DNA from: Amoebophrya sp. A120
Lineage: Eukaryota > Protista > Dinoflagellata
DNA: 64,000 bases
Reading direction: 5' to 3'
Assembly (NCBI GenBank): GCA_905178155.1
Contig: CAJINV010000002.1
Coordinates: 4,707,709 to 4,771,708 of the forward strand
Shown: one piece after another, positions 1-64,000 of the stretch
How the letters are laid out: each line of letters begins with the position of its first letter
How positions within the stretch are numbered: the first letter of the stretch is position 1
Notes under the pieces: generated by a model
Database searches by the model: none
What the model was told of the DNA's origin: nothing
Seen by the model: only the letters and a program-made list of their open reading frames with translations
Program-made: the position numbers and the translations under genes

Positions 1-1811
1 TCGGCCGGTGTATTCGGGTCGTACAGTCCCAAGTTGGAATATAAGAGTGCACAACTCCCCCTCGCGACCTAATGCAAAATCCCAAATCCAGTTGGTGCCT
101 TGTGGCTCTGTTTGCTACTTCAGCTTATTTTACTTTTTGTTTATTATTTTACAAACTCGTCCAGAAGCCGTGCAAGTTTGGAGTTCTAGACTCGGCGCCT
201 GAACTTGTCATGCACAGTGTCCTCCACGTGCACGTGTGTTGGGCTTGTGATAGACATCCTATACAAGTGAGGGGGACCAAGGAAACGAGTTTTGCACTCT
301 CATATGTTGAACATGGTAGTGGAGTGCGTCACCATGAACACGATCTTTCCCTCAAGTTGGGTCATGTCGAAGGCCCCCTGTTGCTGCGTAAAATGCTCCC
401 CGGCGAGCGCCTTGCGGAGCATGCGCCAGCTGCGCTTTTGCAGCTCCAAGAACTTCACGCCAACTTTTTTGTTGTCGTTGTCGTCACTGGGCCAGGTTTT
501 TGCGTTATCGCACGAAAAAGCTGCCGCAGTCTCAACTTGTAGTAATGCAGCGGACACTCGTCTTTCCTGAGCCACTGAATATTTTTTGTCATCATGCTCA
601 GCGTGCGAGAAAGCCACAGGGGCCTCTCCGTTCACATGTCTGTCTTTATGTTTCTCTCGCTGGTTGAAGCCTCACAGGAGCGATTTGGTGTGTTATGATA
701 TGATGATTTGCGCTGATGCTGCGTCTGCAAGGCTAGGCTAAGGCTTGAGACTGAGACAGTTTTATTCTTTCATATTTGTCTTCGGCCCCGTAGAACCAGC
801 TGTGCTGCGAATCATCCGCGTTTTGCAGGAAGAAGATGTTGTCACTCGGGTATGCAATACAAATCATCGGCCATACACGTAGGCTCTTGTTGTAGTACAA
901 AACGGCGCAATGCTAAGTTTGTAATGTTCATCTTCATGCCGAAATAAAAAAATGACGCTTATATATGAAAATCAAAATTTTTCATGCCGAACTGCATGTT
1001 GGTTGCAAAAGAATTCTTTCATGCTCAGCTACTAGCATTAGCCATCGCTTGTACTACTGCCGTGTACAGCGGTTATTTTTTCGTTTCCTGTGAATACGAA
1101 AGGATTCCCGTCTATGTCTTTCCACGAGGACGTCAACGGCCACTTGTCCGTTTCTGTGCCGTACTCGGATTTGGGAAGCTTGGTCGGATCCCAGCCCGGC
1201 GTGCCCGTCTCGCGAATTTCCGGAGTGAGGATGATCTTCTCTCGTCCAGCGTAGTCGGCTTCCGTGCCGTACTTGCCCGAGCTCACGAGCCCCTGGATGA
1301 AAAAGCTGGCCGTTTCCATGGCCCGGCGCATCGGGGAGACGAGGAACACGATATCCTTGCGGTCGTTGTCACTCAGTAGCTCCGGGTACACTTCGGCGAA
1401 TTTCGCTCCACCGTCTTTAGCCTCCGTTTGCCCGTCCCGTCCCTCGCCCTTCTTCGTGAGCGGGGGATCGGTTTGGTCGCCCCACTTTGGCAACTTCGCG
1501 TTGGCCGTCGACTCCGCGTGCCGCATGACAAACAGCTTCTTCGGGCCGACGGAGGTAGGAAGAACCTTCATCGGCGTCGGCGGCTTGATGGTGCTGCCCT
1601 TTGCTCCTGCTCCTCCCCCCTCGCCACAGACGCCCACGCACCAAAAACTGTGTGCAGCGACGAAACGATCCGCTGGAGAGAACGCGGTGAAGGTCAGCAC
1701 CAGGTGCGCGGCCAACATCTTCAAGCCGCGACGAGTAGAAGAGGGCGAGCAACGAGAAACTCCAGAGGTCGAAGAGGATGAAAGCGACAACATTTTGCTG
1801 GACGTGGTCAA
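1..1811 (-). CDS. Histidine phosphatase (phosphoglycerate mutase-like) protein, spliced, 3' end runs off the window
   Basis: LFVMRHAES (RHG-type motif), DPPLT, VSPMRRAMET and PEIRE in ORF 1038-1811; second motif VFMVTHS in 305-505. Removing introners 851-1096, 506-774 and 40-304 joins the exons in frame. Start uncertain (hydrophobic MLAAHLVL segment). Confidence 0.75.
40..304. mobile_element. Introner, family I (TATRAGAGTGCA TIR)
   Basis: TATAAGAGTGCACAACTC ... GAGTTTTGCACTCTCATA; decayed TSD tggaa/tgttg; removal restores the frame. Confidence 0.75.
506..774. mobile_element. Introner, degenerate G-like family
   Basis: TATCGCACGAAAAAGCTGCCGCAGTCTCAA ... TTGAGACTGAGACAGTTTTATTCTTTCATA; TSD tgcgt/tttgt. 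Confidence 0.7.
851..1096. mobile_element. Old degenerate introner
   Basis: TAT...ATA ends, weak TIR (cggccatacacg / cgtgtacagcgg); removal restores the frame. Confidence 0.5.
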
Positions 1812-3447
1812 CGATTACGATAGTGTAGTTGCACTCAGATTGTTGATGTTGAAAAAAAAACAAATGCGCGGAAAAAAAGATGGTTGTACCAAAACTTGTT
1901 CTATTGCGACTGATCCAACAACAAAGTATTGTACCAGTTTCTTTCAGTAGAACTTTGAATGAAGAAGCTACTTCCCGGAGTAAAGTCTCGTGAAGAGAAG
2001 GTAGTTGTCCTTCTTCAGTTTCAAAAATACTTACGTATTGATTTTGATTTTCAACAGGGATATGAAGTATCCGTGTGTGATCCTGTCGGAGATGCAGCAG
2101 TGACAGCGTTTGTTTTGTGTTGGTAATTATTTTGTCGCCTGCGCTAGTCTCTATTGATATTGTTGAGCATATTTCGTGCATCGAAATGATCTGTGCAACA
2201 TCTATTTCTGATCTTTTTCCTTTGTCTCACAAGCTCACCACACCGATGATCCTCCGCCTTCCTCGAACATGGTCAACCTGTTGCGTGTCGATATTTTAGT
2301 TTCATTGGTACTCGAAGACAGATACTTTTCGTGGCAGAAACGTCCGAGTTCTTTGGAACAACCGAGAGGACGACGTGTACAGTCTTTGTCAACCGATCTA
2401 TCTGTCTTTTTCTTCGGGGTCGATCTCTGATCCCTTCTTTTCTTCAACCAATATCGTGAAACTCATGGTGCTTGCGATCTTCTGTAACATGATCTTCGGG
2501 TATTCAACTAACATGATCATTCTCGGTGTTTCTAGATTGTCAATTAATAAATTAGTTTGATCCGGCGAGGTTTATAACGAACGAAACCATTGAACAGAAC
2601 CGTGGCTGCAACTGGAAACCATTGCTGAGTGATGAACGCGGTCGCAGCTGGAGAAAGCGTTTGCCACTCTTGTTTTCGTTTTCAACTTCTTGAGGAAGTG
2701 AGGAGCGAGCAACCTGGTGTCCATCCTGCTTGTGAAATCATACATAATCCTGAATGATCCTGATGACTCCTGGGACTAATGCTAGCACTTCATCCTCTGC
2801 TGAAAGTACTAGTCCTTGTGTCGGCTAAAAATAGGAGTCCTATTTGTAGTGGTCGGGATGATATTGCGTCATCAATCTTATCGGGATATTGATACTTACT
2901 TCCAGGGGAAGTGGGCGACTTTTCGAGGTCGATCATCTTCCCAATTTTGATCGACCCGGACTCGCCCCGATCTAGCACATCAGAGTCAAACTCAGACCTC
3001 ACGGTAGATCAAATATAATCAACTCGAGCTGTACTATCCTCTGCTTGAAGATAAAGTGTAAGTGAAGTGGAAGTGAAGTGATTGAGTATCAAAGATCCCA
3101 GAGTGGAGGTGGAGCTCTCACTCTGCAAGATCACGATATGTACCTTACTTTGAGATGAAGTCTTCTCCGAATCTCCAAAAATCTGTATTCATCCTCAGCG
3201 CCTGAGTAAAATCACAGCGCAGAAAAAAGCGTACACAGCTAAGGCGCCAGGACTGCTAGCGCACAAGCCATCACTTCAGTGCTCATGATATTTGTATATT
3301 TGTTCGACTCTAAATCATACACTTTCCCGCGTCCTACTCCTGTTGTTTGCTGTCCTTGCAGTCAGTAGATTTGTGGGTTAGGGTGCAGTCTTCTTTATTG
3401 ATTTAGATTTGTGGGTTAGGGTTTACATTACAATCCGATAATTTTAA

Positions 3448-3925
3448 TTACATAATTACTGGATGTAGGAGGTCATACTCCAAGTCGTACTTTTTCCTCC
3501 ACGAAACATCCGTCCGCATTTCCTCGACGCTATTATAGGCCTTCCAATCGTTCACAAAATTTGCCAGCAAATGCAGAAACGCCATGGCGCCGTGGTTCTT
3601 GTCCTCGAAAGCAGAAGTGTCGTTCTCTCCCTGAAACGGCAGCAGGTGGGCGCCCGTAAAAAAACAGATCTTGGAAGTTTTCCCGTCAATACCCTTAATA
3701 TTTTCCACAACTCCTTGTAGTGGTGTGTCCTCGCAGCTCCTCTCGTTCTTGATTCTATCACTACCGCCTTCAACATCTTCACGCAGGTCGGCACACTTGA
3801 TGCGGAAGCCCTCCGGTAGTTTGGCTGGGACGATTTTACTTTGTAGTTCCGTTGACTGCTCAACATGCAGGAGACCAGCACCAGAAGACCACGTACACTC
3901 GTCAAGACGGACCGCCCCAGAGGAC
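3448..3925 (-). pseudogene. Detached C-terminal part of the alpha/beta-hydrolase at 10178-12389
   Basis: Open frame SSGAVRLDECTWSSGAGLLH...KICFFTGAHLLPF...HPVIM*. Its first 44 bp duplicate 10178-10221 in the same frame; GAH is a candidate catalytic His. Confidence 0.75.
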
Positions 3926-3941: not shown

Positions 3942-5286
3942 AGAATCGTTTTCAACAGAAATCTACTTCCTTGTGAATATACTTATTTGTAAATGAAAGA
4001 ACAAACTCAGTGACAATAGAACGACAAGAAAAAGTAAAAGCTCTAGCAAATTTGTCTCGCACATAGAGACTGATCTCACCAGTAAACGCACGTCGATCCC
4101 AACTGTAACTGTTCCTTGCTGGTGCGGATAATTTTCGGTAGTTTTAAACGCGTCAGCGTCGTCTTTGAACAGCGCCAAGTCGTCCTCACTGGTTTCGTCT
4201 TCGTCGGTGCCGGAATCCCGAAACATCTTGCTCTTCCCTTCGAGCCACGTCCCGGGCCTTTTGCCCTTGGACGAGGTCGAGGACGACGTCGTCGGATCCT
4301 TGTTTACAGAAGAACCCACGGTCGTGGTTGTACTGGAAATCGAAGAAGAAGAAGGTGTGGTTTTGACATCATTTTCCGATTTTTTTTCTTCTTGATGTTG
4401 TCCATTTTCTTGCTTCATCGGCTGCTCCTCCGGGTCTTGTACTTGATGCTGCTGCGATACTTTCCCCGCCTCATGATTCTGCTCCTGATCTTTGGGAATG
4501 CTTCCTTGCACGCTTGAGGCAGTCATTTTTGCGGGTGCTCCGTCTTGATCATTTCTCCCCGGAGCAAGTTCTTGTGGGGGCGGTGGATGTGGCGGCGAAA
4601 CTTTGCTGTCAACAGAACTACTAGTGTGGTCCCCGCGCTGAGAAGAAGACGTGGACGACGAAGTTGGTGTTGTGGTCTGCTGGTAAATTTCGTTTTCTTG
4701 CTTCTGCCCGACATGATCATCGCGTTCTTGTTCCTGCTTCTTCTGCACAAACCCAGGAGCTGCACCAGGATTTTCATTTTTTTGGTTTTTGTCCCCCATA
4801 ACCGCCGCCGTTGTGCTTGCTCTTTCCCTTGCGATCTCACTCCCCTGTCGCCCCACTTCCTTCGCGAATGCGTGCGACCCTTCACGTTGCTTTTGCCTGG
4901 CCGCGGCGTGTTTCGCCTCCTGCACCTTGGTCGGCCGCTTCACATCGTCGGGGGAAGCAGTACCAGTAGATGATCTCGAGTTGATGTTGTGCTGTCCTTG
5001 TCTAGAAGATGAAGCGCGGTCTCGTTGATAGTAGTCTGAAGCTCCTGCTCCGCGATCATCGTAGTCGAAATTGTAGTTGGTCTTGTGGTAGTAATCCCTC
5101 GTCCGCGCGTCGTATTCCAAGTCCTCAGCCCGAGCGTATTCCTCCTCCCCGTTCTGGCGGCCCCGGCGGACGTAGTACAGCTCTTCCTCCTGGTATCCCG
5201 ACGGGTAGGTTTTGATCCGCTTGATCTGGTAGTAATCGTACTTTTTTTTTCCCCCGTAGAACCACACATCGTAGTAGCCGTGGAAG

Positions 5287-5439
5287 TATCCTGTGCAAAA
5301 GTATCGCACTCGTACTAATTGCAATCTTGCATGACAAACCTATCTTTTTACGACCTCAACTAGCATTACAAATTCCATTTTTCTTTCTGATAAAATTTGT
5401 AATGCAATTTGTGCTAGTACGATACTTTTGCAATGCATA
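5287..5439. mobile_element. Introner family B (in the duplicated segment)
   Basis: TATCCTGTGCAAAAGTATCG ... CGATACTTTTGCAATGCATA; TSD ggaag/gaaag. Confidence 0.9.
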
Positions 5440-5979
5440 GAAAGAACAGAAACTCGTCGACTAACAACACCAAAAAGAGCAGCAGAATCAGCCCGCAAAA
5501 CGACTTCGCGCAACAGCAACAGCTCAGGTTGCAGCAACAGCACGAAATATTTCTAGGTTTACTATTCGCCTGCTTTTTCTTCTCATTTGTTCCTTCATCC
5601 CCGTGGTCCCGCTTGGAGGTTCTTCCATCGTCCTCTCCTTTTGCAGCTGCTTTCAGTAGCGCCTTCTCCTTGGCTGTTTTCCCCAAGTAAAAGAGCCGCT
5701 TCTCGTAATCGGATAGCCGCTGCCGCACCGGCTCGTCCGCCATCGTGGAAGCGTCGGCTGTGGAAACTACAGACGAATCTTGTTTTTGGCCCAGGCTGTT
5801 GTTCATGTTCTTTTCACCCTGCTCTGTGGTCTTCTTTAATGCACCGCCTTCCTTTGCCACGGCGACCACTTGCGTCAGGTCTCTCGGCGCCTTCTCGACG
5901 GGGATCAGCGACAGGTCGTAGGCTTTTTCCGGGCGGAATTCCTTCAACGGCCGCCGGGTCGGGAATTCCACCGGCCGGC

Positions 5980-6299
5980 TATCAAAAGGAAAAATCCCCC
6001 CTCCCCATATCGAAAAGGTACGTCTCAAGAAATTTGTAATGCTGATTTGTGACCACAAATCGTCTCTGTCTTGCAAGAACGCAACCCCGCAGGCTCCGCC
6101 ACGTTCTGCAGGCGGTTTGTGATGCTGGTGGCCCTACAGACTAGACGTTTGCCATGCTCAGCGCCTAGCCCAAAACCTCCCTACTCAGGGTCAGCATAGC
6201 CTGCAGTCCTCTCTAGCAAGACAAATCTGATCTGTGTACGCAAATCCAGCATCAGAAACTTCGTTTTGATATGGGGAGGGGGGATTTTTCCTCACAATA
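5980..6299. mobile_element. Introner family C (in the duplicated segment)
   Basis: TATCAAAAGGAAAAATCCCCCTCCCCATATC TIR; TSD ccggc. Confidence 0.9.
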
Positions 6300-6366
6300 C
6301 CGGCACCAGAAGACCACGTAGACTCGTCAAGAGGGACCGCCCCAGAGGACCGCAGTCCCCCTTTAG

Positions 6367-6930
6367 GACTTCAGCACTAGCACGCGGATCTCCCTCAAGA
6401 AGTGTTCTTGAGACAAATCCGCATTACAGATTCCATCTGTAGTGCTGAGCAATTTCATTTGCGGACTTGCATCAAGAAAAAAATTTAAAATTTCCGCACT
6501 AGAAGTGGAGGACGTAATGCGGCTTTGCCTCAAGAAGAGTCTTGAGGCAAGTCCGCAAACGGAATTCGTCAGCTATAGAAAGAGGGTCTGTAATGTTGAT
6601 TTGCCAGCCTCAAGAAAAAGGGTCTTCTTGAGGCAAATCCGCACTACAGAGTCCATTTCCAATGCGGAAGTCCTAATCTTGAGGAAAGTCCGCAAGAAAT
6701 GGAATTCCTCAGCATTGGAAATGGAGTCTGTAGTTTGGATTTGCCTCAAGAAAAAGTAAAAGACTCTTCTTGTTGAGGCAAATCCGCAAACTGCGTTTCT
6801 AATGCTGATGTCCGCGTTACAGATTCCATTTCTAAAAATGGATGCTGAGGGAATTTGTATTGCCGTAGAGACGGCAATACCAATACAAGTCCCCTCATCC
6901 CGATTGAATACAAATCCGCATGACAAATTC
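6367..6930. repeat. Array of alternating inverted repeats CTTGAGGCAAATCCGCA(Y)TACAGA
   Basis: Roughly ten degenerate copies in both orientations (e.g. near 6403, 6541, 6628, 6776 forward; 6516, 6580, 6729 reverse). Confidence 0.85.
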
Positions 6931-6940
6931 CAAGATCCCC

Positions 6941-7019: not shown

Positions 7020-7043
7020 AGGTGACGAATTCGGGCTCCAGGG

Positions 7044-7339
7044 TATCCTGTGTTAAAACGTCTTCACGCCGTAGTTATCACGCAACTCCGCATGCTTAGA
7101 ATGTTCATGTTGCCCATGCGGAGCCCCATGAGAAGCGTCTTCTAATGTTGTTTTGAGATTTGTCATGCTCCAATCAGCATGAGACACTAGATCTGTATGT
7201 AATGCTGCCGAACTAGCTCAAACAGCACTACACTACGCGTCCAAATTAATTTGTCATGCGAAACAACCAAAGCGTGTGGGTTAGGGTCTAGCCGATTCCG
7301 CATCTTGGCTATGGGGTGGGGGCGTTTTTACATAGGACA
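7044..7339. mobile_element. Introner family E
   Basis: TATCCTGTGTTAAAACGTC ... GGCGTTTTTACATAGGACA; TSD caggg/cagga. Confidence 0.85.
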
Positions 7340-7487
7340 CAGGAGGCCCAGGGGCAGGCCATGGCCTTCGGAAAGTCCATCCCCGCATTTCTCAACAACG
7401 TCGAGACCTTCTGGGCGGAGACAGAGGCCAAATTGCTGGGCAATGACGACAGTGCGGGCGCGTCCGCGATGAAGAAGGCGCCCAAAA

Positions 7488-7796
7488 TATCCTGAGAAAG
7501 ACCGTCCCCACCCCATACATAGGCGCATGCTAATTCGCACATAAGTACAGAAGCGCTTGCATTGTGCATCCCCCTGGGAGGCAGTTCTAGTCGTGTTTCG
7601 GAACAATTTGCAATACTCCCATGCATAAGCAGTCAGATGGATTTGTGATGCGGCTGTCCTAGCCAACCTGCACTACACTGAGTGACTCTAACTACAGACT
7701 GCAACTTGTCATGCGTGACACCCAAAGCTTCTGGATTTGTGTTGCAAAATTTCCATCTTGGCTATGTATCGAGTAGGGACGTCTTTCTAGAGGATA
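7488..7796. mobile_element. Introner family E
   Basis: TATCCTGAGAAAGACCGTCCC ... GGGACGTCTTTCTAGAGGATA; TSD caaaa. Confidence 0.9.
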
Positions 7797-8041
7797 CAAA
7801 AATAAAAATAAGGACCCCGAAGTGCTGGAGCCACTGGTCCTTGGTGCGGCAAAGGATAAGAAAATGTGCAAGCACACGGCGAAGATGTGCGACGAATTGA
7901 ACCTGGCGGCGCGTCAAGGCGTTTGCACTCTGCAGGTCGAGGACGACAGCGGGCAGTTCGAAAGCGTGACCCTGAACTTTGACCAGGTGAAACTGCGCGA
8001 GGCCCTCGAGGAGTTGAAGACGATGGCGAACCTCCTCAAGT

Positions 8042-8286
8042 TATCAAATGTAAAAATGTCTGGGTCTAGAAGATTCCGAGATTTGTAATGCGTGTTTTGC
8101 CTGGGCCATGATGTCTGTGATGCGCGCCCTAGCATCACAGTTTTTTTGAGGGCCTCGCGATGCCTATTCCGCATGACAAATGCCCTCTCCGCATGACAAA
8201 TGCCCTCTGCTGCTCATGCAATACAGATTAATTCAGCATCACAAGTTGCATTCTTCCCAAAGATGCAGACATTTTTACATTTGATA
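8042..8286. mobile_element. Introner family A
   Basis: TATCAAATGTAAAAATGTCTG TIR; TSD caagt/aaagt. Confidence 0.9.
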
Positions 8287-8386
8287 AAAGTCCATCATCG
8301 ACAAGAGATACGGGGGCTCGTCTTTCTTCGAGGTTAGCGTGAATCTCCTCGACTGCTTCACCGAAGACAAATCCTCCCGCACTAAC

Positions 8387-8630
8387 TAGCCTGTGCAAAA
8401 GTATCGCACTCGTAGCAATTGCGCTTATGCATTACAAATCTCTTCTCAAGGCAAATCAGCATTACAGATTTGATTTGTAACGCTGGGCAGATTTCTAAAC
8501 GCAGTTTATTTTTATACTAGTCCTAGTGCAAACAGCATTACAAGTTTGATTTGTAGCGCTGGGCTACTTGAAATGCAGTCAGTTTTTATATATATATATA
8601 CTAACTAGTGCGATCCTTTTGCGTCTGATA
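8387..8630. mobile_element. Introner family B with an internal duplication
   Basis: TAGCCTGTGCAAAAGTATCGCACT ... AGTGCGATCCTTTTGCGTCTGATA; TSD ctaac. Confidence 0.85.
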
Positions 8631-9050
8631 CTAACGAAGGGAAAACGATGTTGATGCACCTGGCGACGCATATTTGCGGGGGCACCGAGGGGGACATCAA
8701 CAAGGGCAAGAACTCGAAGTACGCCGAGTGCCTCGCGGACCTCAAGAGCAAGTACGACGCGCTCCGGGCCGCTTTTCACGGGTGCACCAGAGGACAGCGC
8801 AACAGCAACGCAGCCATTCTGCACTACGCCAAAACGCACAAGATCGAGTCGCCCATGGTGTCGTTCTTCTACGTAGCAGACCGGATGACGGCCTCTTCTG
8901 GCGGCGCAGAGCGGGCGCAGAAGTTCTTGCGTGGCGTCCGGACGAAGTACGCAAACAAAACTTGCGAGAGATTCGTCGCGGGGGCGTATGTGGCTGGCCT
9001 CGACCGCGAAGAGAAGCGGAACCTGTCCTACATCGTTGCCGACGCCTACC

Positions 9051-9201
9051 TATGAACTGCAAAAGTAGCGCACTAGTATAAATTGCAATACAAATTGGCT
9101 CAGCATTAAAAAACTCAATTTGTAATGCGGATTTGCCTTAGGAACTAGATTTGTAATGCATAAATGCAATTAGTACGAGTGCGATATTTTTGCACAGGAT
9201 A
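9051..9201. mobile_element. Introner family B (opposite orientation to 8387)
   Basis: TATGAACTGCAAAAG ... TTTTGCACAGGATA; TSD ctacc. Confidence 0.9.
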
Positions 9202-9293
9202 CTACCTCTACGAGAAGCCGCGCCGCTGCGTCCGCGGAAAGGACAGGAAGGCGGGCCTGACCTATGTGGCGCGGATGACCAAGGACGACAAGT

Positions 9294-9577
9294 TGCCCCA
9301 TTTAAAAACGCCCCCACCCCATAGCTGTATTTAGTGCAAAGCTGCATGCTGAAAATGCTTCGCATGCGGAGCCCCATGAAAAGCATTCTCCAGTCGTGTT
9401 TTGAAATTTGTCATGCTCCAATCAGCATGGTATGCTAGATCTGTGATGCTGCTGAGCTAGCTCAAACAGTACTACACTACGAGTCCAAATTTGTCATGCG
9501 AAACAGCCAAAGCCTGTGGATTTGTCTAGCCGATTCCACAACTTGACTATGGTGTGGGGACGTTTTTACTCAGGATG
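9294..9577. mobile_element. Introner family E with degenerate ends
   Basis: TGCCCCATTTAAAAACGCCCCCAC ... GGGGACGTTTTTACTCAGGATG; TSD caagt. Confidence 0.85.
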
Positions 9578-34171: not shown

Positions 34172-34185
34172 GTCCCCCTCACTCC
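34172..34185 (-). other. Polypurine tract
   Basis: GGAGTGAGGGGGAC immediately upstream of the 3' LTR on the element strand. Confidence 0.85.
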
Positions 34186-34430
34186 AAATCCAAAGTCAAA
34201 AAATAAAATCTGTATTGCAGGTTCTTTGTTTATAGTCTTTGCGAGACTTGCGAAAAATGAATGCAGGCGTAAATGGAAGCGAATAAATTTGGTGCATAAT
34301 AAAACTCTCTTCGATAGTCATCAGCAGTCCCCCTTGCGCCGAATTTCTTCGCGTTCGTTCGTTCGTTCGTTGGTGTCCAGTTAGGGTTGCTGGCGGTCTG
34401 TGGTGTTTTTCATACTCGGAACGTTTTCGG

Positions 34431-40373: not shown

Positions 40374-40475
40374 GGTTTGTCGTTGGGGTATTTATGATTC
40401 TAAATTTGTAATGCTGATTAGGTGCAAAGTGTAATCTTAAACGTTCGCAATCAGAAGTAAATTCTAGTGGTGATT

Positions 40476-40487
40476 TGGGCTCATAAC
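40476..40487 (-). other. Primer binding site, half-tRNA(iMet) type
   Basis: GTTATGAGCCCA 2 nt inside the 5' LTR boundary; complementary to an initiator tRNA anticodon arm, as in Ty5 and Drosophila copia. Confidence 0.75.
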
Positions 40488-40489
40488 TC

Positions 40490-40857
40490 TGTGAAGATGC
40501 GAACTAACCAACGACGAGGTCGAACCCACTACGAGTAAAAACAACACCTAGTTGAGGTGGTACAAATATGCATGAGAGATTATTTGTGTGTGTGTGTGCC
40601 AATACTGGCATCAAGGGCCCTGGAGTTCATTGGAAGAGTAAAGGTCGATGGTACTGCGTGCCCAGGCAAAACTGGGGCACTCGGGAACCTTCACTATTCT
40701 TGCCGTGACGTTCGTGCCCGTCTTAGCCTGTTTCAGGTTCAGTAGTCATCTTACTCTAGTAGAATTGAACTAGTGACGATCGTGCCCGTTTAGGTGTGCT
40801 TTGGATCTTTGGAGTGGATCAAGGTTCTTATCGTTGGTTGATGATTTATGTGTCATA
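40490..40857 (-). repeat. 5' LTR (368 bp)
   Basis: Direct repeat of 33804-34171. Confidence 0.96.
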
Positions 40858-43800: not shown

Positions 43801-44362
43801 CATGCAGTACTGGGATTAATACGAGCACGATACTTCTTCTTTTCCGGTGGATACGAGGATGATGAAGACCACCGGGCCGAGCACGGTCGAAGCTATGCAT
43901 TGCAAAAGTATCGTACTAGTATAAATTGCAATACAAATTTCCTTAGCATGAGAAATGGAATTTGTCATGCGGATTTGGCGTGATAAAAAGATTTGTAATG
44001 CAAGACTTGCATTTATACGAGTACGATACTTTTGCACAGGATAGAAGCCGTGTGCCACCAAAACTTCCTCTTCAGCTCCGCCCTATGAGAGTGCACAACC
44101 GCAGGACCTCGTACATTTGCCGTGCAAAAGGCCAAATCAGTCTGCTCTTCGAAGCAGTCTGTTCATGAGGAAACGCTTCGGAAGGCGAACGCGAGTCCCT
44201 GCCCCAGCCCCGAAGAAAGGAACTACTTTTACAAAAAATCCGTGCGCGGATTTGCCATGCGAAAGCTACAGAAACATGATCTGTGGCACTGATTCTCTTG
44301 CGTTGCTGGCACTCCAAGTGAGGGAGAGGTTGTGCACTCGTCTCGTACGCCACGCGGGCCGT
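40858..44362 (-). CDS. 5' exons of the multi-pass membrane protein interrupted by the copia element
   Basis: Several TM-rich exons (41778-42190, 42435-42791 and others); ...TYGQQG joins REQVDV in frame across the TSD; start not located. Confidence 0.7.
41523..41777. mobile_element. Introner family A, degenerate
   Basis: CATCAAATGCAAACACGTCTGGGTC ... GACCCAGACTACATATTTGCACTGTATA; TSD uncertain. Confidence 0.8.
42792..42952. mobile_element. Introner family B
   Basis: Family B TIRs; TSD tacag. Confidence 0.9.
43005..43243. mobile_element. Introner family D
   Basis: Family D TIRs; TSD ctctt/ctcat. Confidence 0.9.
43894..44043. mobile_element. Introner family B
   Basis: Family B TIRs; TSD gaagc. 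Confidence 0.93.
44084..44347. mobile_element. Introner family I
   Basis: TATGAGAGTGCACAACC ... GGTTGTGCACTCGTCTCGTA; TSD cgccc/cgcca. Confidence 0.8.
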
Positions 44363-52828: not shown

Positions 52829-53721
52829 TTACTTGGGGGCGTTGAAAGTCGGGGCGTTGAACAGGGTTCCGGCGCCCTGGAACTTGGCCATCTCCTCCTG
52901 CATCTTGGCCTGCATCTCCTGCTGCTTCTTCTCCATCTCGTATTGCTGCTTCTGCATCTCCTCCTCGGCCTTCTTCTGCTGGTACTCCATGGTCAGCTGC
53001 ATGGCCTGCTGCTCCAGAGCGGCCTTCTGCTGGGCGGCCTGCTGCTGCAGGGCCATCAGCTGCTCCATGCGCTGCTGGTCCAGAGCCATCTCCTGCTGCT
53101 TCACCTCCATGTCGATCTGCATAATGAACTGCTTCTTCTGCTGGTCGGCCTGGCCCAACAGGTACTCCTTCTGGTGCTTCACCTGCAACTATGGAAAGGG
53201 AAAACTGAATTTGTATTGCTATTGTCATGTTGTTTTCATATCTTTTTGGTGGATTCCAATTTCATCTTTTCTGTCAAGCTGCATTCTCGCCGAGTGCAAG
53301 ATATTTCTGCAAAAACTCACTAAACGTTTCTACGACCACGTTTCATCATATTCAATGCACCGCTGTCACGAAACGCAGTTTTCCTTGCATACAGCCTCCA
53401 AGACCTGGGTGCCCTGCTTGACTTGCTCGTCCAACATCTTCATGTAGGCGTCCTTCTGCTTGGCGATGGTGGCCGGGTCCGGCATGCCTGGATAAAATTA
53501 CAATTATCGGCGTTGATCACTTTCAGACAAATCAAAAGCTAAGGGATAAATTCCCCCCGAGAGAAAGAAAGAACCGATCGAATATAATCGACGTTTTTCG
53601 CTGAACAAGAAAACAGCTGCCTCTTCCCACATGCGACTCAGTTTCATAATCGCGAAAAACTTATCTTACCAGCCGTCAAGGGCTGCGGCGGCATCATCAT
53701 CTGCGGAGCGCCAGCGGACAT
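52829..53721 (-). CDS. Gln/Met-rich coiled-coil protein, 3 exons
   Basis: MSAGAPQMMMPPQPLTAG|MPDPATIAKQKDAY...|QVKHQKEYL...NAPK*; strongly GC3-biased codons; function unknown. Confidence 0.85.
53190..53391. mobile_element. Decayed introner forming intron 2 of the Gln-rich gene
   Basis: TATGGAAAGGGAAAACTG ... CAGTTTTCCTTGCATA; internal TTGTCATG; diverged TSD. Confidence 0.7.
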
Positions 53722-54903
53722 TTTGTTCCGGTCTCTTTAAAGGAGCATGAAAGCGAAAGAAGACTTGCTTTTTAATTCAGCTTGGCCTCCCCGGGCAAAG
53801 ACAACCGAATTCCTTTCCTGAAGAGCCGAAGTCCTCGCTCTTCATGGATGGTTTCCGATTGCGATTCCGCATGACAAAGCTTTAATTTTGGCTCTTGGGC
53901 TTTGCTCGTTGCCTGCTTCGCGGCCACACCATGAACGCTTTGCCTTCAGGGTTGGCGGGTCCAAGACAAATTTGACAAGTCTTCTTTCGTCTTTCATAAG
54001 AGGTAGTTCCGAGGAACGAATGAAATTGACCCTACGGTTGTTGTTGTTCAAAATGTAAAATTTTTTTTCGTGAAAATTTCAATCTCTTTTCCAGTACACG
54101 CTCTGGGGGCAATCACTTCTCCTCATCTGCACGCGCTTCTAATACTTAATATCAACATCTTCATCTAACTACACGGAGGGGGGGGAAATTTAAAAGTCTA
54201 TCTCTTCGCGATTCCGATATCAGGAGGCCTTGCTGCTGCTCAAGTGGCACTGCTACGCTGGCTTTTCTTATCTCCACAAAACGAGGCGTGAATTCAGAAG
54301 ACACACAGGTGCAAGAACACGCCACACACACGCACGGGAAACCACACTTTTTCTCAACTCAACGTAAGGTTTACAAGCCACCTCATCTATTTTTTTGTTT
54401 CTCTCGTGCCTTTCTCGTGTACACACACCCACTGGGTTTCAGCTTCACATAAGTATATGAAAATGAATGATAGTTTTGAGAAAATTATGAGGTGTGAAGC
54501 TTCTTCTCCGCTCCCGAAGGGCCTTGCTCCTGCTTTTCTTTGTTTTTTAGTGCCGTTTCGGAGCACAATGGATGATTCAACGAGCCGGATAATTGCATGG
54601 GGGTCCAACCAAATATGATTTCTACATTCATCGCAATTTACATCTTTCTGCAACACGGTCCGCATCAACATTCGAAATTCACTTACTTCTTGTCGACGTC
54701 GTCTGGGCTCTGGCCCTAGCGCTAGGCCATCACCATCTAGATAAATGATTAGTTTGTCAATCTCCATCTTGATATTCTTGCGTGGCATAAAGCATTGTAA
54801 CATTTTGATATGAAAAGGTGCAAGTGCTCCCCGTCTAATTCACAGTACTTCCAGTTCGACGCTCTCCGGCGCCCGCAGCAGCAGACGCTCTCCGGCGCCC
54901 GCC

Positions 54904-57900
54904 TCACAAGTACAGCGTGCTCGGCCAGAATGCCGGTTCCTGCTCGGGTAGGTCCCACACATTCACGTGCACGAAATTGTCCTCGAATTCGCACCCGCTC
55001 GTCCCACCCGCCCGCTTGCAGTCCGGCAGACACGCGTTGTGATCCGTGAGACACTGGAGCACCGAGCCGTGGTCGCCGAACAGCTTCTCGACCGGTGCGT
55101 GGTACCGGTCGAAAAAGATGTGCTCCATGTGGTTATCAACTGTAAAAATGTCTGGGTCTGGAAGTGATGCGCATTTTAGAACACAGAAAAATGAAAATCT
55201 CTCATGCATAGGTCGCAAAAGCTTCCCACTCTCGGTCACCAAAGTGGGGGATTTCTCACGCGGGCTCGGCATTGCGGAAGCTTCTCGAAACCTGTGATGC
55301 TACAGCTTTCATGCCAGACCTTCTATGTCATGCAAAAACAGCATGACTCTTCCAGACCCAGACATTTTTACATTTGATAGTGGTGCTGGGACAGCGAAAT
55401 CGCGTACCGTTCCATCCCCAGCATCCGGGCCCGCTATCCTGAGTAAAAACGTACCCACACCAGAGTTGTAATGCAGATTTGCAAAGACAGGAAGGCTTGT
55501 AATGCGCATCCGCATGAGAGCCATTTCCAGTCGTGTTTTGGAATTTGTGATGCTGTGAACAGGATGAGCAGATGAATCTGTGATGCGGCTGCACTTGCTA
55601 ACCTGCACTACACTGCAGAGCGCAACTTGTCATGCGTGACTCACAAAACTCCTAGGCTCGTGTTGCGAAATCCCCATCCTGACTCTGGTGTGGGTACGTT
55701 TTTACTCAGGATACCCGCCAGGGGTGATTTTCCGTCTTGATTGAATGCTGGTAGTACACGTCCCCGATGTGGTGCGTGATGTTGGGGATGCGAATCAGGA
55801 AGTAGTTGTCGTCGCCACAACCGAGGAAGCTCCACGCCTGCGTCGTCCTGCTCGCGTCGTTGAGCGCGGTCCGCTCGTAGGAAAATTTCTGTTGCAGTAA
55901 CTCGTTAAACTGCTCCTTGGTCCGGTTCAGACTCGCGGAAGAGACCTCGTCCGTGTAGAGCTTCAAGTCAAAGTCGCTGTCCCAGGGGAATTGTCCCACC
56001 GCGCCGTTCCGCCACAGCGCCAGGAGTGATCCCTCCTCCGGTACGGCTTGCTTCCCCCTCTCGCGGACCCACCAGTCCAAAAAGTAGCGGAAGTGGTTCT
56101 CGATCTGCTCCCGGAAGCAGTAGCTCCCGATCACGCCGCGCGTGTTGATCTGGAACCAATTCAGCCCGGGCATGCAGTGTTGCGATTTCCGGATGTTCGT
56201 GCCCGGGGCGGGGGAACGATAATTACTGCTAGTACTAGAAGCGGCGCTTGCCTGTGTTGTACTGCGGCCTGCTGTTTCATCCTCGCTGTGTAGAAGAAGT
56301 TGATCGCCGTCGTCTGAATTCTTGTGCACCGCAATCACCTCGATTTGAAACTGGTCCGCCAGTGTTCCGTCCAGTACCGGGTAGTCCGAATACAAAACGT
56401 CCTCGGGAACCAGTTGCGTGCTGGCGTAATGCACATTTACCGGAAACATCCTGGTTGTGATATCGTTCAGCAGCAAATCGAGGTACAACAAGATCCTAGT
56501 TGATTCGCTTCCAGCTTGTTCTGATGCGAGCGTCGGTGTGTCCGCCGAGGAAGAGGATCCACTTCCACCAGCAGCACTAATAATTGTTGCATCCGGAACG
56601 TTGTTCGCCAGCTGACGGTACAGCTCCGCAGTGTAGACCCGAAACGCAGAACCGGCGGCGCAGGACTTCCGGCGGGCGCGGCTGTTGCTAAATGTGCTGG
56701 TGTAGTAAAGGGCTTTCCAGTACTGGACCCGCAACTGCCGGCAGGTCTCGACTCGCTCGCCATCTGAATTCACAGCCGGATAGAAGATCGCGTCGACTTT
56801 GCTGCTGGGAAAAGAAGTCGCTGGATCTTCGTTCGGATCTTCTGCTGCGCGATCTCCTTTGCGGCCGGTTGCACTTCTCGTCGCTGTTCGGTTTGTTCTA
56901 CCAGCATGGCGGGCGCCCGACGAATTTACCATGCCATCTCGTCCTCCGTCCTGCTGCAGGCTCTCCACCGTCTTCCGCACGTGGCTCTCCATTTCCGCAA
57001 AGCGCCACCGGTGGTCGAACAGGAACCGGGAAAAGACGAGCACGATGTAGGTATTCTTCTTGCCACCGTCGCTGAGATCGTGGTCCGTCGCGTGATCACG
57101 CGCATATTCCCGCATCCCAGCAGCACAACTTTCCTCGTCGAAGAAACTTACGGATATCCCGCTCGGAACCAGCTCCTCGTGCAGCCAATCGGTCCGGCCG
57201 CAAACGAGGAAGTGGAACTTGATTCTTTGCGACGAGTCCTCGCGTGCCACGATTTCATTTCTACCACGGGCATCACCGCTCTGCGCTTGGTCGTCCACTG
57301 CGAGCCACCGCACCGATAATACGGCGGGCTCCCCGGGTCGGGAACCGAGATTCTCGTGTCGACGGTCATCGGCCTTCTTTCGAATCCCTGTTGACGCCTC
57401 GTCCAGGCTGCTCGGCTGCTTGAACCGCAGCTTCACCATCACCGCACCGTCGAATCGGCGCTGCACAATGGCAGAAGAGTGCGGCACCACGGTGATCGAC
57501 TGGTGTGGCGAGAGTCGGAGCTGTAACCTATTGTCGGCAGCACTAGTAGTGCTCGCTGTTGTTCTTTGCGCCTCGGATTTATCGGGATGATCGTGCGGCT
57601 GTTGCGACAACTTTTTCCCTCTACTTTTCCTCTGATAGACGTAGACGCTGATGCTTCTGGACAGGTACAGACCTTCCAGGTTTGCAGCGGGGGGCGGAGC
57701 AGCCCCCGTTGAGAATCGGTCTTGCTTTTGCTCGTGAAAGTAACCTGGATGCCCGACCAGGAGACCCGGAAGGTGTTGCGTTTTTTCTGCTGCAGTCCTC
57801 CCGCCACTTTCCGTCAATCCACCTAGCAAAACTTGCAGCACCCGTTGGAAACACCAAAAGGAGGGCTTGGTGCTGGATAGCGGCTTGCGGTTCTTGGTCC

Positions 57901-60900
57901 TCAGAAGTAGGTGCTGCTCTTCCCCTGGCGTCACTCGCCGTTCGTCGTCCTGGGCTTTGTCTAGTACTTCGGCAACGTCCTCCACAATATCATGCTCGTC
58001 CCGCCCAACAACCGCCTCCACGGCTGCCAATGCCGCTCGCTCATACTCCCTGCAGTCCAGCCGTTGGTTCTCCTTCGCGTAGTACACGGCTTCCCGTATT
58101 CGCAAGTCGGCTACCTGCAGATAACTGACCCGCTCCCGTGCGGGTTTGTTGAAGCACAGATGCTGTGGGGTGCCGCTGCTCTTCAGTACCACATCCAGTG
58201 CGACCGCGAGGTTCGCCCATGGTGCACCCGTCGCTTGTAACCGCGATTTGCGCGAATCGCTGTTGCGATCAGCACTGTCCAACAACATTTTGTGTTTGTC
58301 ACCAACACCTACACCATCGTCTGCCGTTGTAATCGCTACGAGCTGCACCGCTTTCTCCACAGTGTTCAAGAACAGCCCTCCCGACCGAAAGACCCGTGCG
58401 GCAGAGTGCCCGCCTTCCGACTGGAAACACAGCTTCCCTGAGGTTTTCGCGTACCCCGTCGGGTAGGGCAGATACTGCAGTGTGTTATGGAGGTCGCGGA
58501 TCTTCCGAGGCTCCCAGAGGTAGTAACGCTGTGGCGGAGATACAGCAGCCCCGTAAGAACCTGACTGATTTGCAACTGCTTCGGCAGCTTCGCTATCGCC
58601 GTCGGCTGACGTTCCCGCTTTCGCTCTTTCGGCTTTCAACCCGGTCTCGTAGTCCGCGAGGATCGGGAAACCCACTACAGAAACGCTTTTCTCTTCCAAG
58701 AGTTGCTGGAGCGCCGTGGAAACAGCGATACCCAAAAAATCCTCCGTCCAACCGGGATCATGAGGATCGTCCACTGGGACGGCGTCGCGCTGCTGGTGTG
58801 AAGACTGCTCTTCTGCTGCGTCAATAGCCGTCCTCGTAGTCGTATCCGGCCCTTTGTGCTGCAGAAATTCACCTCCGACCACTTCGCTTGAGACGGCCCC
58901 GCTGAACAAACACAAAACAGGCGAGTCACGATCCAGCTGGTAAAAATCGCTGTCGGCTTCTGAAATGAACTCGATCTGATAGGGAGGACTCTTCGAACCT
59001 GAGGCTGTACTTCTTGACGAGGTGGATGAACCAATGTTTTTCGTACTGCCAAAGCTGATCGACATGAGCACCGTCCGTACGTGGTACTGCCGGATTTTAT
59101 CCGCCAGCACCTGGGCCTTTCGCAGCTCTACTTCTTGTCCGCTTTTGTCCAAGGTCGGGAAAAACACCACGACGATCGTCAGATCCCGCGGCTCGCCCCA
59201 GCCTTTGAAGTACGGAAAATAGGGGCTAATTGGCGCCTCGTGGAACACAGATTCCGGGTGGTCGGCGCGGGTCAAAGCCGGCCGCAGGGTCAGCGCGAAA
59301 GAGGTGACGACCTGATGCACGTCCTCCTGCTCTCCAAGGTCAGAGGCAGAGGCGCTTGCGCGAGAATCTCTTGAATCTGCGGGGTGCTCGTGGTTTCTTC
59401 TGCCGTCTCTACTTCTAGCTGCCGAGTTTTTTTCGTCCAACGCCGCATCTAGCTTTCTGAAGTCGTTCGCGATGTCTTTCCGTATTCCTTCTATTTTCCG
59501 TGCGGTCCAGACCCTTTTTTGGATTAGGTGCAGCAGCTTCCAGACGGGCCACTTGGTAGATATGGGGTTCTACTCAAGCGTTGGTTGCATTGTTTTGTGT
59601 ATACATGATTTTGCGACGCAAGCATGGCACATGCCAAAGCGGGGAGGTTTTTCTTGCGCATGCGCGTCTTGCAAAATTACAAATTTGGCGCGCAGTAGTT
59701 CCAGGCTATTTATTTCTAGCGCTTCGCAAAGTTTTCGTGCGAAGTCGCTCGATCGTCGTGTGGAGATCGATAGTGGTTTGTGTGGATGACAAATCAACAC
59801 GTAGCAGCAGTCAATGTAACCCCGCTTGAGAACAATGCCATAGTGGAGATCAGATCGTACAAACTGTCCTTCAGATTGTAGTTCATGAGATGCTTCTGTC
59901 CCTCCTGCAACAGCTCCTCGAGTTCCTCGATCGACTCCGCCGCTAGGGCCAACGCAAAAGCCGCGCTCGCCTTCCCAAACGGGCACTTCCCTATCCTGTG
60001 CAAAAGTATCGCACTCGTAGTAATTGCATTTATGCATTACAAATCTTTTTCTCAAGGTAAATCAGCATTACAAATTGAATTTGTAATGCTGGGCTAATTT
60101 GTAATGCAATTTATACTAGTACGATGCTTTTGCATTGCATATTCCCCAGGTGCCACCAATTCTTCTCCCAAAATAGAGCCGCGTTGTTGCTGTTCGTGCT
60201 ACCACTCCTCGAGGAGTCTGCTGCAGCATCTCCATCCGCTTCAGCAGCTGCGTTCTGATTGATTCCCGGCGGTTCGATGGAATTGGCCATGTAACGAAAA
60301 ATTGCCAGCTTCGAGAGCCGCAGCTTCGGAGATACGTAGGGTTTCTTGGGATGCAGGAGAAAGCTGTGGTTATGGATGTTTTCGAGTAACCTCAAATTTG
60401 CCGTTATGCTCTCCACAAGTTCTTGATGTAGCTCTACTTCCGTAGTTGTGCGTGCAGGTTGCTCGTCTACTGCTCTTTCTACGCTTCTAGAGGTTGGCTT
60501 TGCGCTTGTCGACGTTGTTCCTGGTTCATCTCTAAGCCTTTTGCGATAGTGTGCCAGCCGGTTTTTCAGAGCTTGTAACATTTTCCCCAATTTGGTCAAG
60601 GAGGCCTTACGTTCTTTCGCATGAAGGTCCACATTTTCATCGTCCTTACTTGCCCCCGTGAAAGCAGGAGCTGCAAGAGGGCCAGAGCCTTTCCTGGCTT
60701 CCTTCTCTTCTTCTTCGTGCCGCTTCGCGTTGCTCCACGTCTCCAAACCAATCACGGGGGTTTCCCGGCCAGATTCCGCTAGAAACACATTCAGCTGGTG
60801 CAGGAATTTGTCGGAGAAGTCCGCATCCAGGGAATCGCAAAAGTTGTAGAGCGGGAAGCCGGACGTGGACCTCAACTGCTGCTGAATCTCGTGCAGCATG

Positions 60901-62180
60901 CCGAAAATCGGCCACTTGCTGTTCCGGACCACGTGCGCGAAGGGAATGGAAATCAGGTCCACCATAGCCGAGTGCTCGCGGATCTGGATGCACCGCTCCG
61001 AGTCGTTCGAGGTGTACATGATGAAGGCCTGCAGGGCCAGCACCGCGAGCGGGTTCGAATGCGTCTGGTACGAGACGAAGAGGTGCGGTTGTTGCTGGTA
61101 CCAAATGTAGAAATCGCGGTACTGTGACCGGCCGTAGAGCGACTGGAGGGACTTCGTCGTGTCTTTGCTCTTTGGCGGGTGTCGTGGTGTATTTTCCGTG
61201 GTGTCGCTGCCCGCAGCGGAATTTTTGGCGGATGTGCTGGAAGTAGACGCCTGATGTGAAGATCCATCGGCTGATGTGGTTCTTGTCGACGGTGCGTCAA
61301 ACATTAAATCAGCGTCATCCTCCTCCTCCTCGTCATCCTCTCCTCCCCCAGAAAGGAACTTTTTCGGTTTGGTGCCATCCAGCGGGAAGTACTCGAGAAG
61401 CGTCTCCTGCACCTCTTGCCAGTCCAAGTCGACTATGAACTGCAAAAGTTAAAGTATCGTACTCGTATCAATGCATTACAAATTTTCTCAACATGAGAAA
61501 TAAAATTTGTCATGCTGATTTACCTTCACAAAAATATTTGTAATGCAAGACTTGCATTTATACGAATACGATACTTTTGCACAGGATATCGACCGGCTTG
61601 TGGCCTGGGGTCGCGGGGTGGTCCGGGATAGCGTCTTGATCTTCTCGGACGGATATTACAATGAAAAATGCCCCCACCCCAGAACTTGGCAGCATCTGTA
61701 TTGCAAACCTCTCCAATAGAAAGATTCCCCGTCTTGCGTATATCAGCATCACAAATTTCCCATGCTGAATAGCTCAAGTCTGTGTTACAAAGGAGCCCAA
61801 CAGTAGCCGGATCTGTTATGCAAAAGATACCTTGCGCGCCTAGATTCTGCATCAGAAAGGCTCATAGTCCTTTCATGCAAGACAAAAAGAAAAAGCTTTC
61901 ATTTGGAAACTTTGCATGAGAAACTTTTGCAAACTAATTCCGGGGTGGAGGCATTTTTCATTGTAATATTAATGGAGGCCTGCTGTTCATCCTGTTCGTC
62001 ACCGCGGCTGAAGGAAAATAAAGAAAACGTCAGCGCGAGGCAGGAGAGGATCAGGGCGGAGGTAGAAGATCCGTGCTGGCGGAGTTCGAACCCGGAGACA
62101 TGACCCTTGTCGTGCTCTTCTCGATACAACAAGCGACCCCGCCTCCGAGCCCGAGAGGGGCCGCGGAGTGGGAATGTCAT
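54904..62180 (-). CDS. Large secretory-pathway protein with a C-terminal LicD/fukutin-like phosphotransferase domain (about 1900 aa)
   Basis: EGSLLALWRNG..QFPWDSDFDL matches the LicD pattern G(T/S)LLGxxR...PWDxDxD; hydrophobic N-terminal segment; six introners separate in-frame exons. Confidence 0.75.
55134..55379. mobile_element. Introner family A
   Basis: Family A TIRs; TSD gtggt. Confidence 0.93.
55435..55713. mobile_element. Introner family E
   Basis: Perfect 32-bp TIR TATCCTGAGTAAAAACGTACCCACACCAGAGT; TSD cccgc. Confidence 0.95.
59561..59842. mobile_element. Introner, degenerate D-like
   Basis: TATGGGGTTCTACTCAAGCG ... CGCTTGAGAACAATGCCATA; TSD gtaga/gtgga. Confidence 0.8.
59992..60141. 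mobile_element. Introner family B
   Basis: Family B TIRs; TSD ttccc. Confidence 0.93.
61434..61588. mobile_element. Introner family B
   Basis: Family B TIRs; TSD tcgac. Confidence 0.92.
61654..61968. mobile_element. Introner family F
   Basis: TATTACAATGAAAAATGCCCCCACCCC ... GGGGTGGAGGCATTTTTCATTGTAATA; TSD irregular. Confidence 0.88.
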
Positions 62181-63402: not shown

Positions 63403-63787
63403 ACCAGAGAGCACTGTGGCCGCCCCCGCCCCCGCGGCTGTTGTATTCTTCATCTGCCCGGCGTTTTATCGAATGCAAATATGTCTGGGTCTGGAAGAAT
63501 GCGAGACTTGTCATGCTTGTCTGGCATGACCAAAAAGTTTGTGATGCGTGTCCAAGAAGAGACCCTTTTGCTTGTCATGCAAAACCGCAGTCTGTCATGC
63601 GAAAAACGTAGCACAAAGAAGCGCAGATATTTCTCATGCTTGCCTGTGCATTACAGAGCACTCATTATTCCCCCAGCGCAGCATTACAAGTTTCCAGACC
63701 CAGACATTTTTGCAACCCATACGTTTCTTTCTAAAACCAAAGGCTTCCACCCTTCCGTGTCGGCCATGAGCTTTTCGTTGTAATCCA
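63403..63787 (-). CDS. Internal exons of a gene entering from beyond the window end
   Basis: DYNEKLMADTEGWKPLVLERN|AGQMKNTT joins across an introner; downstream exons not resolved. Confidence 0.5.
63467..63721. mobile_element. Introner family A
   Basis: Family A TIRs; TSD cgttt. Confidence 0.92.
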
Positions 63788-64000
63788 TATGGCGTTCTCA
63801 ATTGTTACATTCTCAACTGTTACATGATTTGTCATGCAGAATCGCCTTGACTATGAACGCCACCAAGCTGCTTCGCATGGCAAATTCTCAGACGGCCAAA
63901 CAGGCTGAGAATCTGTGCCAAATCTATCATGCACGACGCGCAAGGTCCTTCCTTTCACTTTTGCTACTCTTGCATTACAAATCTGTGTAACAGTTGAGGA
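63788..64000. mobile_element. Introner family D, cut by the window end
   Basis: TATGGCGTTCTCAATTGTTACATTCTCAACTG start; right TIR begins near 63986. Confidence 0.88.

Follow-up and report, generated by a model that had tools for sequence, protein, structure and literature searches.

How are introns removed when their ends offer none of the usual splice-site dinucleotides, and what fixes the positions of the two cuts? The question is raised by a 64,000 nucleotide stretch of the dinoflagellate Amoebophrya sp. A120 (contig CAJINV010000002.1, positions 4,707,709 to 4,771,708 of the forward strand; hereafter the window), whose genes are interrupted by short elements with terminal inverted repeats (TIRs). 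Proteins named Amoebophrya sp. A120 are matched at 100% by two window exons. The elements belong to the introners that Farhat et al. 2021 (PMC7789003) published for this same organism, so that the class itself is not new, as an earlier note made from the letters of the window (the sequence-only reading) had suspected. The accessible portions of that paper describe inverted repeats of the form TAT, 7 nt and AAA, many families, a hairpin model, direct repeats of 3–5 nt (5 bp in the Fig. S19 legend) and removal supported by RNA. Table S4 gives about 65% of A120 introns as non-canonical, and the same portions report no clear dinucleotide signature at these introns; the splice sites are described as variable relative to the hairpin, with the border unknown (Fig. 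3 legend), and the repeats as lying 1–5 nt from the splice sites (Fig. S23 legend). In contrast to that variability, we find that a single register, with one nucleotide removed before the element and four after it (1+4), fits the resolved junctions and overrides nearby GT-AG pairs. A literature search found no published splice register for these introns, although the figures of Farhat et al. or the Gozashti datasets could contain one; the fixed register is, as far as that search goes, what is new here for a known class. We consider this cis rule, removal of the element plus 5 nt in the 1+4 register, very probable, and we favour, at a probability of about 0.5, its execution by a remodelled U2-type spliceosome that uses the paired ends as a ruler.

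Scanning both with a TAT assumption and without one, followed by curation against RNA joints, identified 46 complete elements, 109–436 nt long, between positions 40 and 63721, with one more at 63788 cut by the window end; among the 46, that at 506–774 is doubtful and two are copies that arose through a 2.2-kb duplication. TAT...ATA ends are present in 38 of the 46, at least one terminal base being altered in the other 8, and the flanking 5-mers are identical at all five positions in 25 elements, at four in 10 and at three or fewer in 11. The association of TAT...ATA ends with a 5-bp duplication, proposed as a rule in the sequence-only reading, is thereby confirmed. A strict pattern (TAT...ATA, exact 5-bp repeat, TIR of at least 12/20) occurs 22 times in the window, whereas 200 shuffles gave 0.045 on average and never more than 1. 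Scanning metagenome contigs for a motif yielded 136 loci with the same families, containing 334 elements; the loci were found through the end of one family, so the family sizes are biased. Among 276 independent elements of these related contigs, chosen strictly but with no repeat demanded, the flanks match exactly at a length of 5 bp in 222, and at 3, 4, 6 and 7 bp in 4, 1, 0 and 1 cases respectively. Clustered with the 334, the window elements fall into nine multi-member families plus singletons, so the earlier estimate of at least eight TIR families holds. Their inverted repeat consists of TAT, seven loose bases and then an A tract, and they have the traits of miniature inverted-repeat transposable elements (MITEs) or non-autonomous TIR transposons, being short, non-coding and multi-copy, with a TIR and a target site duplication of fixed length.

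Removal of the elements was followed in contigs from four runs (X1–X4) that are RNA-like, with X1 depth varying between 0 and about 9,000 and GT-AG introns skipped in four cases; a further run, X13, is DNA-like, with flat depth of about 23–33 over unique sequence. The first set of joints as listed (15 of 21 rows) comprises 11 rows for 12 elements, three canonical introns and one chimera, and the second, for X1 and likewise as listed, comprises three rows for two elements and one canonical intron. The chimera, joint 24093>28565 (side 25 nt), links two element copies and was dropped, and the second joint table also held 12 repeat-end chimeras from X13. All 14 element junctions among those listed remove the element plus 5 nt, as the sequence-only reading had deduced from protein motifs for CK2 and acyl-CoA dehydrogenase, and they belong to the following elements:

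14525–14798, minus strand: old singleton in the C-terminal coding region of an acyl-CoA dehydrogenase (ACAD) gene, repeat 0/5; intron 14521–14799 with AT...CT ends, joint 14520>14800, unambiguous, 4/4 runs
15462–15897, minus strand: ACAD element, repeat 4/5, 4/4 runs
15967–16228, minus strand: ACAD element (SG|VKLG), repeat 5/5, 4/4 runs
16933–17193, minus strand: ACAD element, repeat 5/5, 4/4 runs
17233–17381, minus strand: ACAD element (AK|QF) with a 3' ATG rather than ATA, 4/4 runs
22962–23114, minus strand: element, repeat 4/5, 3/4 runs; its flanks equal those of the duplicate at 5287–5439, and the RNA contig carries the duplicate's base at 22311
26947–27055, minus strand: 109-nt element, TIR 20/20
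28323–28596, minus strand: element, TIR 20/20, 3/4 runs
31061–31433, minus strand: element, repeat 1/5, covered by public protein model P0002; intron 31057–31434 with TT...GC ends
31453–31662, minus strand: element, repeat 5/5
32906–33130, minus strand: element, repeat 4/5, 3/4 runs, covered by public protein model P0001
33179–33425, minus strand: element, repeat 5/5
52573–52820, minus strand: old singleton, repeat 2/5, joint 52568>52822 in X1
53190–53391, minus strand: old singleton, repeat 1/5, intron with GT...TG ends, joint 53185>53393 in X1

All five ACAD elements are thus among the resolved junctions. Two more elements, at 55134 and 55435, are jointly removed with 5 nt each by contig arithmetic in X1, in which 50 nt are left of 585. 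The ACAD and CK2 identities hold, and removal of the element plus 5 nt reproduces the predicted junction peptides, including SG|VKLG; the CK2 frame check rests on the segment across its two elements. Reading frames stay open under the 1+4 rule across five elements in ACAD, six in a plus-strand gene and six in the gene at 55–62 kb. Joints for the CK2 elements, for 53746 and for the 59–64 kb elements lie outside the listed rows, as do those for 23655, 24053, 31730, 32069, 32439, 32710 and a Copia insertion described below, which is not the same as absence. Two further runs with raw reads on record as RNA under the same species label (X16 and X17) give 126 and 445 window reads, nearly all partial, and are neutral as evidence.

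With a perfect repeat the cut can slide along it, whereas with a decayed repeat it cannot, so it is the decayed copies that fix the register. It is uniquely 1+4 at 14525, 31061 and 53190, where the repeats match at 0/5, 1/5 and 1/5. Elsewhere the number of upstream nucleotides is constrained to 0–1 at 22962, 1–2 at 52573, 1–5 at 32906 and -1 to 4 at 15462, and the intersection over all 14 junctions is 1, giving N|TAT...ATA|NNNN in the transcript direction. Public A120 proteins, which were built from transcript alignments, bound the register to 0–2 at 31730, 0–1 at 32710 and 0–1 at 41523; removal of the 31730 element with 6 nt was considered, but the annotated protein gives 5. The rough chance of such agreement among six registers is 2e-3 from RNA alone and 1e-4 with the three annotation-bounded sites. 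The elements at 22962 and 32710 belong to one family in opposite orientation and have the same transcript-relative register, so the asymmetry follows the transcript and not the element. At 31061 a GT-AG pair giving an intron of the same length lies 3 nt away, and the mini-exon in X1, X3 and X4 fits the TT...GC cut instead; use of a nearby GT-AG site, the outcome named in advance as speaking against the proposal, was thus not seen. This mini-exon (31435–31447) is only 13 nt long (18 with the repeat), lies between two elements and is correctly included in 3/4 runs. At 53190 a CAG located 3 nt downstream is similarly unused; this gene has a paralogue. The duplication, which had been taken as part of the rule, is dispensable as a signal, as junctions whose repeats have decayed to 0–2/5 still lose exactly 5 nt.

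To describe what the ends themselves require, 171 of the 334 related-contig elements were oriented by a codon model (34 of 39 multi-element loci being strand-consistent) and combined with 43 window elements, for a total of 214. There is no preference at +1 (G in 62/214, p 0.42) or at the last two bases (AG in 16/214, p 0.90), and no coupling between +1 and -1 in these 214 (p 0.19). The 5' dinucleotides AT, GT, CT and TT occur at background rate, all 16 dinucleotides occur at the 3' end, and the exon-start base after the element (A 66, G 60, C 54, T 34 of 214) follows no purine rule. Canonical U2-type (GT/GC-AG) or U12-type (AT-AC) termini do not characterise these introns: GT-AG falls in the 1+4 register in 2/171 oriented elements, and some GT-AG register is available in 6/136 oriented perfect-repeat elements of the related contigs and in 0/25 perfect-repeat elements of the window, as had been claimed from fewer cases; 31061, with its imperfect repeat, is the only window element that has one.

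The ends are nonetheless not free of sequence constraint, and the proposal that dinucleotides do not set the splice sites stands for GT-AG but is too strong as worded, since U is invariant at +2 and A almost so at +3, in line with the canonical GUA donors of A120. Position +2 is unchanged in 225/225 and 47/47 elements of two sets, whereas its mirror position, -5, is changed seven times, including in the 17233 element, which is still spliced. Changes at +4 number 9 and at -7 number 3, counts that are small and non-independent. Among canonical donors, 3/4 of those confirmed by RNA match U+2 and A+3, or 8/9 when five CK2 introns read by eye are included, and in Table S4 of PMC7789003 the leading non-canonical site types are all NT-.. 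in A120 (9/9) and all TT-.. in A25 (9/9). The four RNA-defined elements with repeats of 2/5 or less all retain TAT...ATA, and three of them have no family match or internal motif; at 52573 the arms are complementary at 13 of the first 14 positions, counted by eye, in spite of the decayed duplication. Predicted folds pair the terminal bases in 88/118 introns.

The internal motif in question, GCATBACA, was picked by eye and occurs in 166/171 young elements of all families, at a density of 10.2 per kb in window elements and 0.36 elsewhere; it is missing from the spliced singletons 14525, 52573 and 53190. Because old spliced copies retain their ends and not the motif, GCATBACA is likely a mobilisation signal and TAT/ATA with the terminal arms the splicing signal, a separation that does not appear in the accessible portions of Farhat et al. 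A longer form, GCATBACARAT, is found in both orientations in almost every young element, across unrelated families (for example 8042–8286), and is a candidate transposase or integrase binding site. No autonomous partner was found in the 136 loci, where tblastn with the Copia polyprotein was empty. One of these loci (L068) contains a 2459-nt stretch, 476–2934, in which a 415-codon frame, giving no Pfam hit, is enclosed by family TIRs and a 5-bp repeat; this may be two elements flanking a host exon. A segment of the window at 6360–6930 looks intergenic and has several copies of the internal motif together with internal inverted repeats, without clear TAT...ATA ends.

A much larger insertion shares some of these features:

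33804–40857, minus strand: intact Copia-type long terminal repeat (LTR) retrotransposon inside a coding exon, with an LTR pair, a frame and a 5-bp duplication

The LTRs (33804–34171 and 40490–40857) are 368 bp long and identical at 367/368 positions, and the frame is 1986 codons from stop to stop, with RVT_2 above and rve below the Pfam cut-off, in the order protease, integrase, reverse transcriptase. In the transcript sense the element starts with TAT-N7-AAA and has TAT...ACA ends overall, so that it has TA...CA rather than TG...CA termini. Plant Copia elements with TACA and TATA ends are described in the available part of a lotus study (PMC9804982), and the A120 TA...CA ends are thus a known non-canonical type; unlike those, the A120 element combines the TAT-N7-AAA 5' end with a 5-bp duplication, as in the TIR introners, and has no GT-AG register. 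It interrupts the reading frame, and P0001 runs across it as GQQG|REQV, removing the element plus 5 nt, with no RNA joint among the listed rows. The odds lean slightly towards the Copia element being truly spliced; an empty allele in the culture could give the same model. LTR introners have precedent in Panicum, where an intron can be an autonomous Copia element or a solo LTR according to the consulted sections of Gozashti 2025 (PMC12130899), which also report A120 TIR elements with Copia/Gypsy homology and attribute some introners to LTR elements. A Copia-type integrase may have made the introners, to judge from the ends and the duplication length that they have in common with this element. 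A solo-LTR origin of the introner families from this particular Copia was rejected, the LTR homology being only 25–31 nt at the shared motif. A loose end at 33804 in X1 shows a second transcribed site at which the same LTR is inserted.

How might the 1+4 register be executed? The terminal TAT/ATA and the adjoining A/T tract would serve as the splicing signal, as they are what old spliced copies keep without the duplication and internal motif. The ends would pair and draw the two sites together, placing intron base +n opposite -(n+3), and U+2 and A+3 would be read as in a canonical GUA donor, with the 3' site counted from the terminal ATA rather than found by AG scanning and the branch possibly at A-7. 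As the register removes exactly one duplication's worth of sequence, the mRNA would bear no trace of a new insertion, whichever way round it landed, and this would account for the extent of the invasion; one integrase-like enzyme binding the shared internal motif could mobilise all families. A remodelled U2-type spliceosome is favoured as the machine because U+2 and A+3 match the canonical donor, because U1 is undetected in A120 and A25 (83/89 spliceosomal proteins being present, in the available text of PMC7789003) but is present in an Amoebophrya with GT-AG introns (PMC12005148), and because Fritillaria shows that such breadth is possible.

Several observations weigh against this spliceosomal reading or the data beneath it. 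The same spliceosome would have to enforce GT-AG at canonical introns and yet ignore it at 31061, along with the CAG at 53190, and pairing of +2 to +4 would compete with U6 binding in the established spliceosome structure. That the TIR stem sets the sites, one of the two options in the sequence-only reading, is likely, but selection for RNA pairing is not visible in the TIRs, where G-U and A-C mismatches are equally common (122 and 123), positions 4–7 are often mismatched, the two orientations fold alike (61/118) and orientations that give a TATG donor are not favoured (32 versus 30). The RNA evidence consists of contigs from one sample of one study, and their label as RNA is a guess. Every resolved junction belongs to a minus-strand gene, a paralogue exists for the gene that holds two of the bounded sites, and the invariance of TAT/ATA is partly built into the element searches.

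A tentative but substantial alternative keeps the same cis rule and assigns it to a dedicated non-spliceosomal system like that of Euglena, in which a nuclease and ligase, or a particle, releases the intron as a circle or in linear form. Such a system accommodates the lack of constraint or coupling at +1, -2 and -1, the disregard of canonical sites 3 nt away, the symmetry of the arms in both orientations, and the finding that no hybrid junction between a canonical site and an element occurs among the 18 listed rows for X1–X4. The Euglena code likewise has fixed spacers around a 3-bp pair (N3CDG...CH'GN5-6|R, in the sections of PMC12501133 available), and by our arithmetic the +n to -(n+3) offset is also that of its N6 form. 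Against a dedicated system, U+2 and A+3 coincide with the canonical donor in A120 and, as far as Table S4 indicates, in A25, and the terminal variants ignore wobble rules beyond the outermost pair, to judge from the few changes at +4 and -7. It is less likely that the ends are read as sequence, with a protein such as a domesticated integrase or an RNA-binding factor recognising the TAT-N7-AAA termini on DNA or nascent RNA. The conserved terminal 3 bp, loose positions 4–7 and conserved A tract do resemble a protein site, G-U is not favoured over A-C, and the Copia element has 4/5 terminal pairs and yet is joined across in the gene model; against this, the old copies retain arm complementarity after their duplications have decayed, as at 52573, and the two RNA ends differ, so that two specificities would be needed.

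We regard it as highly improbable that the elements are not removed from RNA at all, the contigs reflecting DNA excision in some cells or element-less alleles or paralogues. Low-level excision could escape notice as contigs drop rare variants, the 52–54 kb gene has a second copy, and the very young Copia insertion could be polymorphic in the culture. However, a contig of the DNA-like run X13 spans the element at 52573–52820, with zero depth at the X1 joints; in ACAD, two canonical introns and the five elements are all skipped at a single contig depth; and an empty site cannot yield a mosaic in which two decayed copies of the repeat meet at a fixed 1+4. A broader proposal, which we consider doubtful, is that any TA-ended insertion made by a Copia-type integrase with a 5-bp duplication is cut from the mRNA at 1+4, with the loss of exactly one duplication, under a universal excision code, 'TA...TA plus five', that is run by a machine other than the GT-AG spliceosome. 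If it were true, the code would range from 109-nt MITEs to a 7-kb retrotransposon, the geometries of insertion and splicing would be matched and exons would be free landing sites; the geometry would converge on that of Euglena, and A25, whose introns would read TTA...TAA-NNN, would share the core U+2, A+3 / A-5, U-6.

Two other systems invite comparison. In the portions of PMC12501133 available, the nonconventional introns of Euglena, an unrelated lineage, are alike in lacking GT-AG, in fixed spacers set from a short terminal pairing, in a MITE-like origin and in coexisting with canonical introns, and circular excision products are reported for them. Euglena introns, however, pair CDG with CH'G, have spacers of 3 and 5–6 and start the next exon with a purine, whereas in A120 the pair is TAT/ATA, the spacers are 1 and 4 and the start of the exon shows no preference; the A120 elements (N-TAT...ATA-N4) do not carry the N3CDG...CH'GN5-6|R signature, and share with Euglena a fixed spacing, here 1+4, and a putative requirement for terminal pairing. 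Fritillaria borealis, as far as the accessible sections of PMC11282704 and PMC13326754 describe it, has non-GT-AG introns genome-wide that derive from elements with TIRs and target site duplications and are handled by a U2-type spliceosome, and only 45–55% of their ends could form the usual terminal pair (PMC13326754). It differs in preferring AG-AC and AG-AT, keeping U1 and duplicating U2AF, whereas A120 prefers only U+2 and A+3, with U1 undetected.

The remaining elements of the window are as follows:

40–304, minus strand: element, repeat 2/5
5287–5439 and 5980–6299, minus strand: elements duplicated at 22962 and 23655
7044–7339, 7488–7796, 8042–8286, 8387–8630, 9051–9201 and 9294–9577, plus strand: six elements
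23655–23974 and 24053–24304, minus strand: elements, repeats 5/5
31730–31874, minus strand: element with a 5' TGT; P0002 gives removal with 5 nt
32069–32393 and 32439–32588, minus strand: elements, repeats 5/5
32710–32860, minus strand: element of the 22962 family, reversed, repeat 3/5, bounded by P0001
41523–41777, minus strand: element with a 3' ATG and a decayed repeat, bounded by P0001
42792–42952, minus strand: element, repeat 5/5; P0001 gives removal with 5 nt
43005–43243, 43676–43832, 43894–44043 and 44084–44347, minus strand: elements
48914–49119, minus strand: CK2 alpha element (EVL|RALD), repeat 5/5; removal with 5 nt restores the frame
49166–49432, minus strand: CK2 alpha element, repeat 5/5
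53746–53998, minus strand: element with a 3' ATG; a likely start codon lies about 30 nt downstream of it
55134–55379, minus strand: element
55435–55713, minus strand: element, TIR 20/20
59561–59842, 59992–60141, 61434–61588 and 61654–61968, minus strand: elements of the 55–62 kb gene
63467–63721, minus strand: element, followed by the element from 63788 that is cut by the window end

The region 7044–9577 is the only plus-strand gene found; removal of each element with 5 nt gives one open frame, the repeats do not resolve the register, and no protein record was found for this gene. The 2.2-kb duplication (4111–6304 = 21786–23979, 99.95% identity) carries two elements, and further copies or paralogues may exist, to judge from loose RNA ends at 21970 and 24039. 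The gene at 52400–54030 is glutamine-rich, reaches an X1 depth of about 9,000, has at least one paralogue and contains three old elements and one canonical intron; one of its exons gave no Pfam hit. The element at 61654–61968 has a TIR of 19/20, family matches of 82% and a repeat of 0/5, and the four intron bases downstream of it recur as the first four bases of the exon that follows; it is possibly a different insertion product. G runs are present at about 32670 and 31878, and the alternative frame after 31730 is more protein-like by eye; a one-base assembly error at these runs may have split one membrane-protein gene into P0001 and P0002.

A single register turns the absence of a splicing signature into a precise, testable code by which some 40,000 intron borders could be re-annotated. 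It predicts the position of the branch point or circle junction and the bases worth mutating, and it would explain why insertions in either orientation carry no cost at the protein level. If the Copia element also obeys the rule, the code would neutralise autonomous retrotransposons as well, and would hint at the class of enzyme behind the introners.

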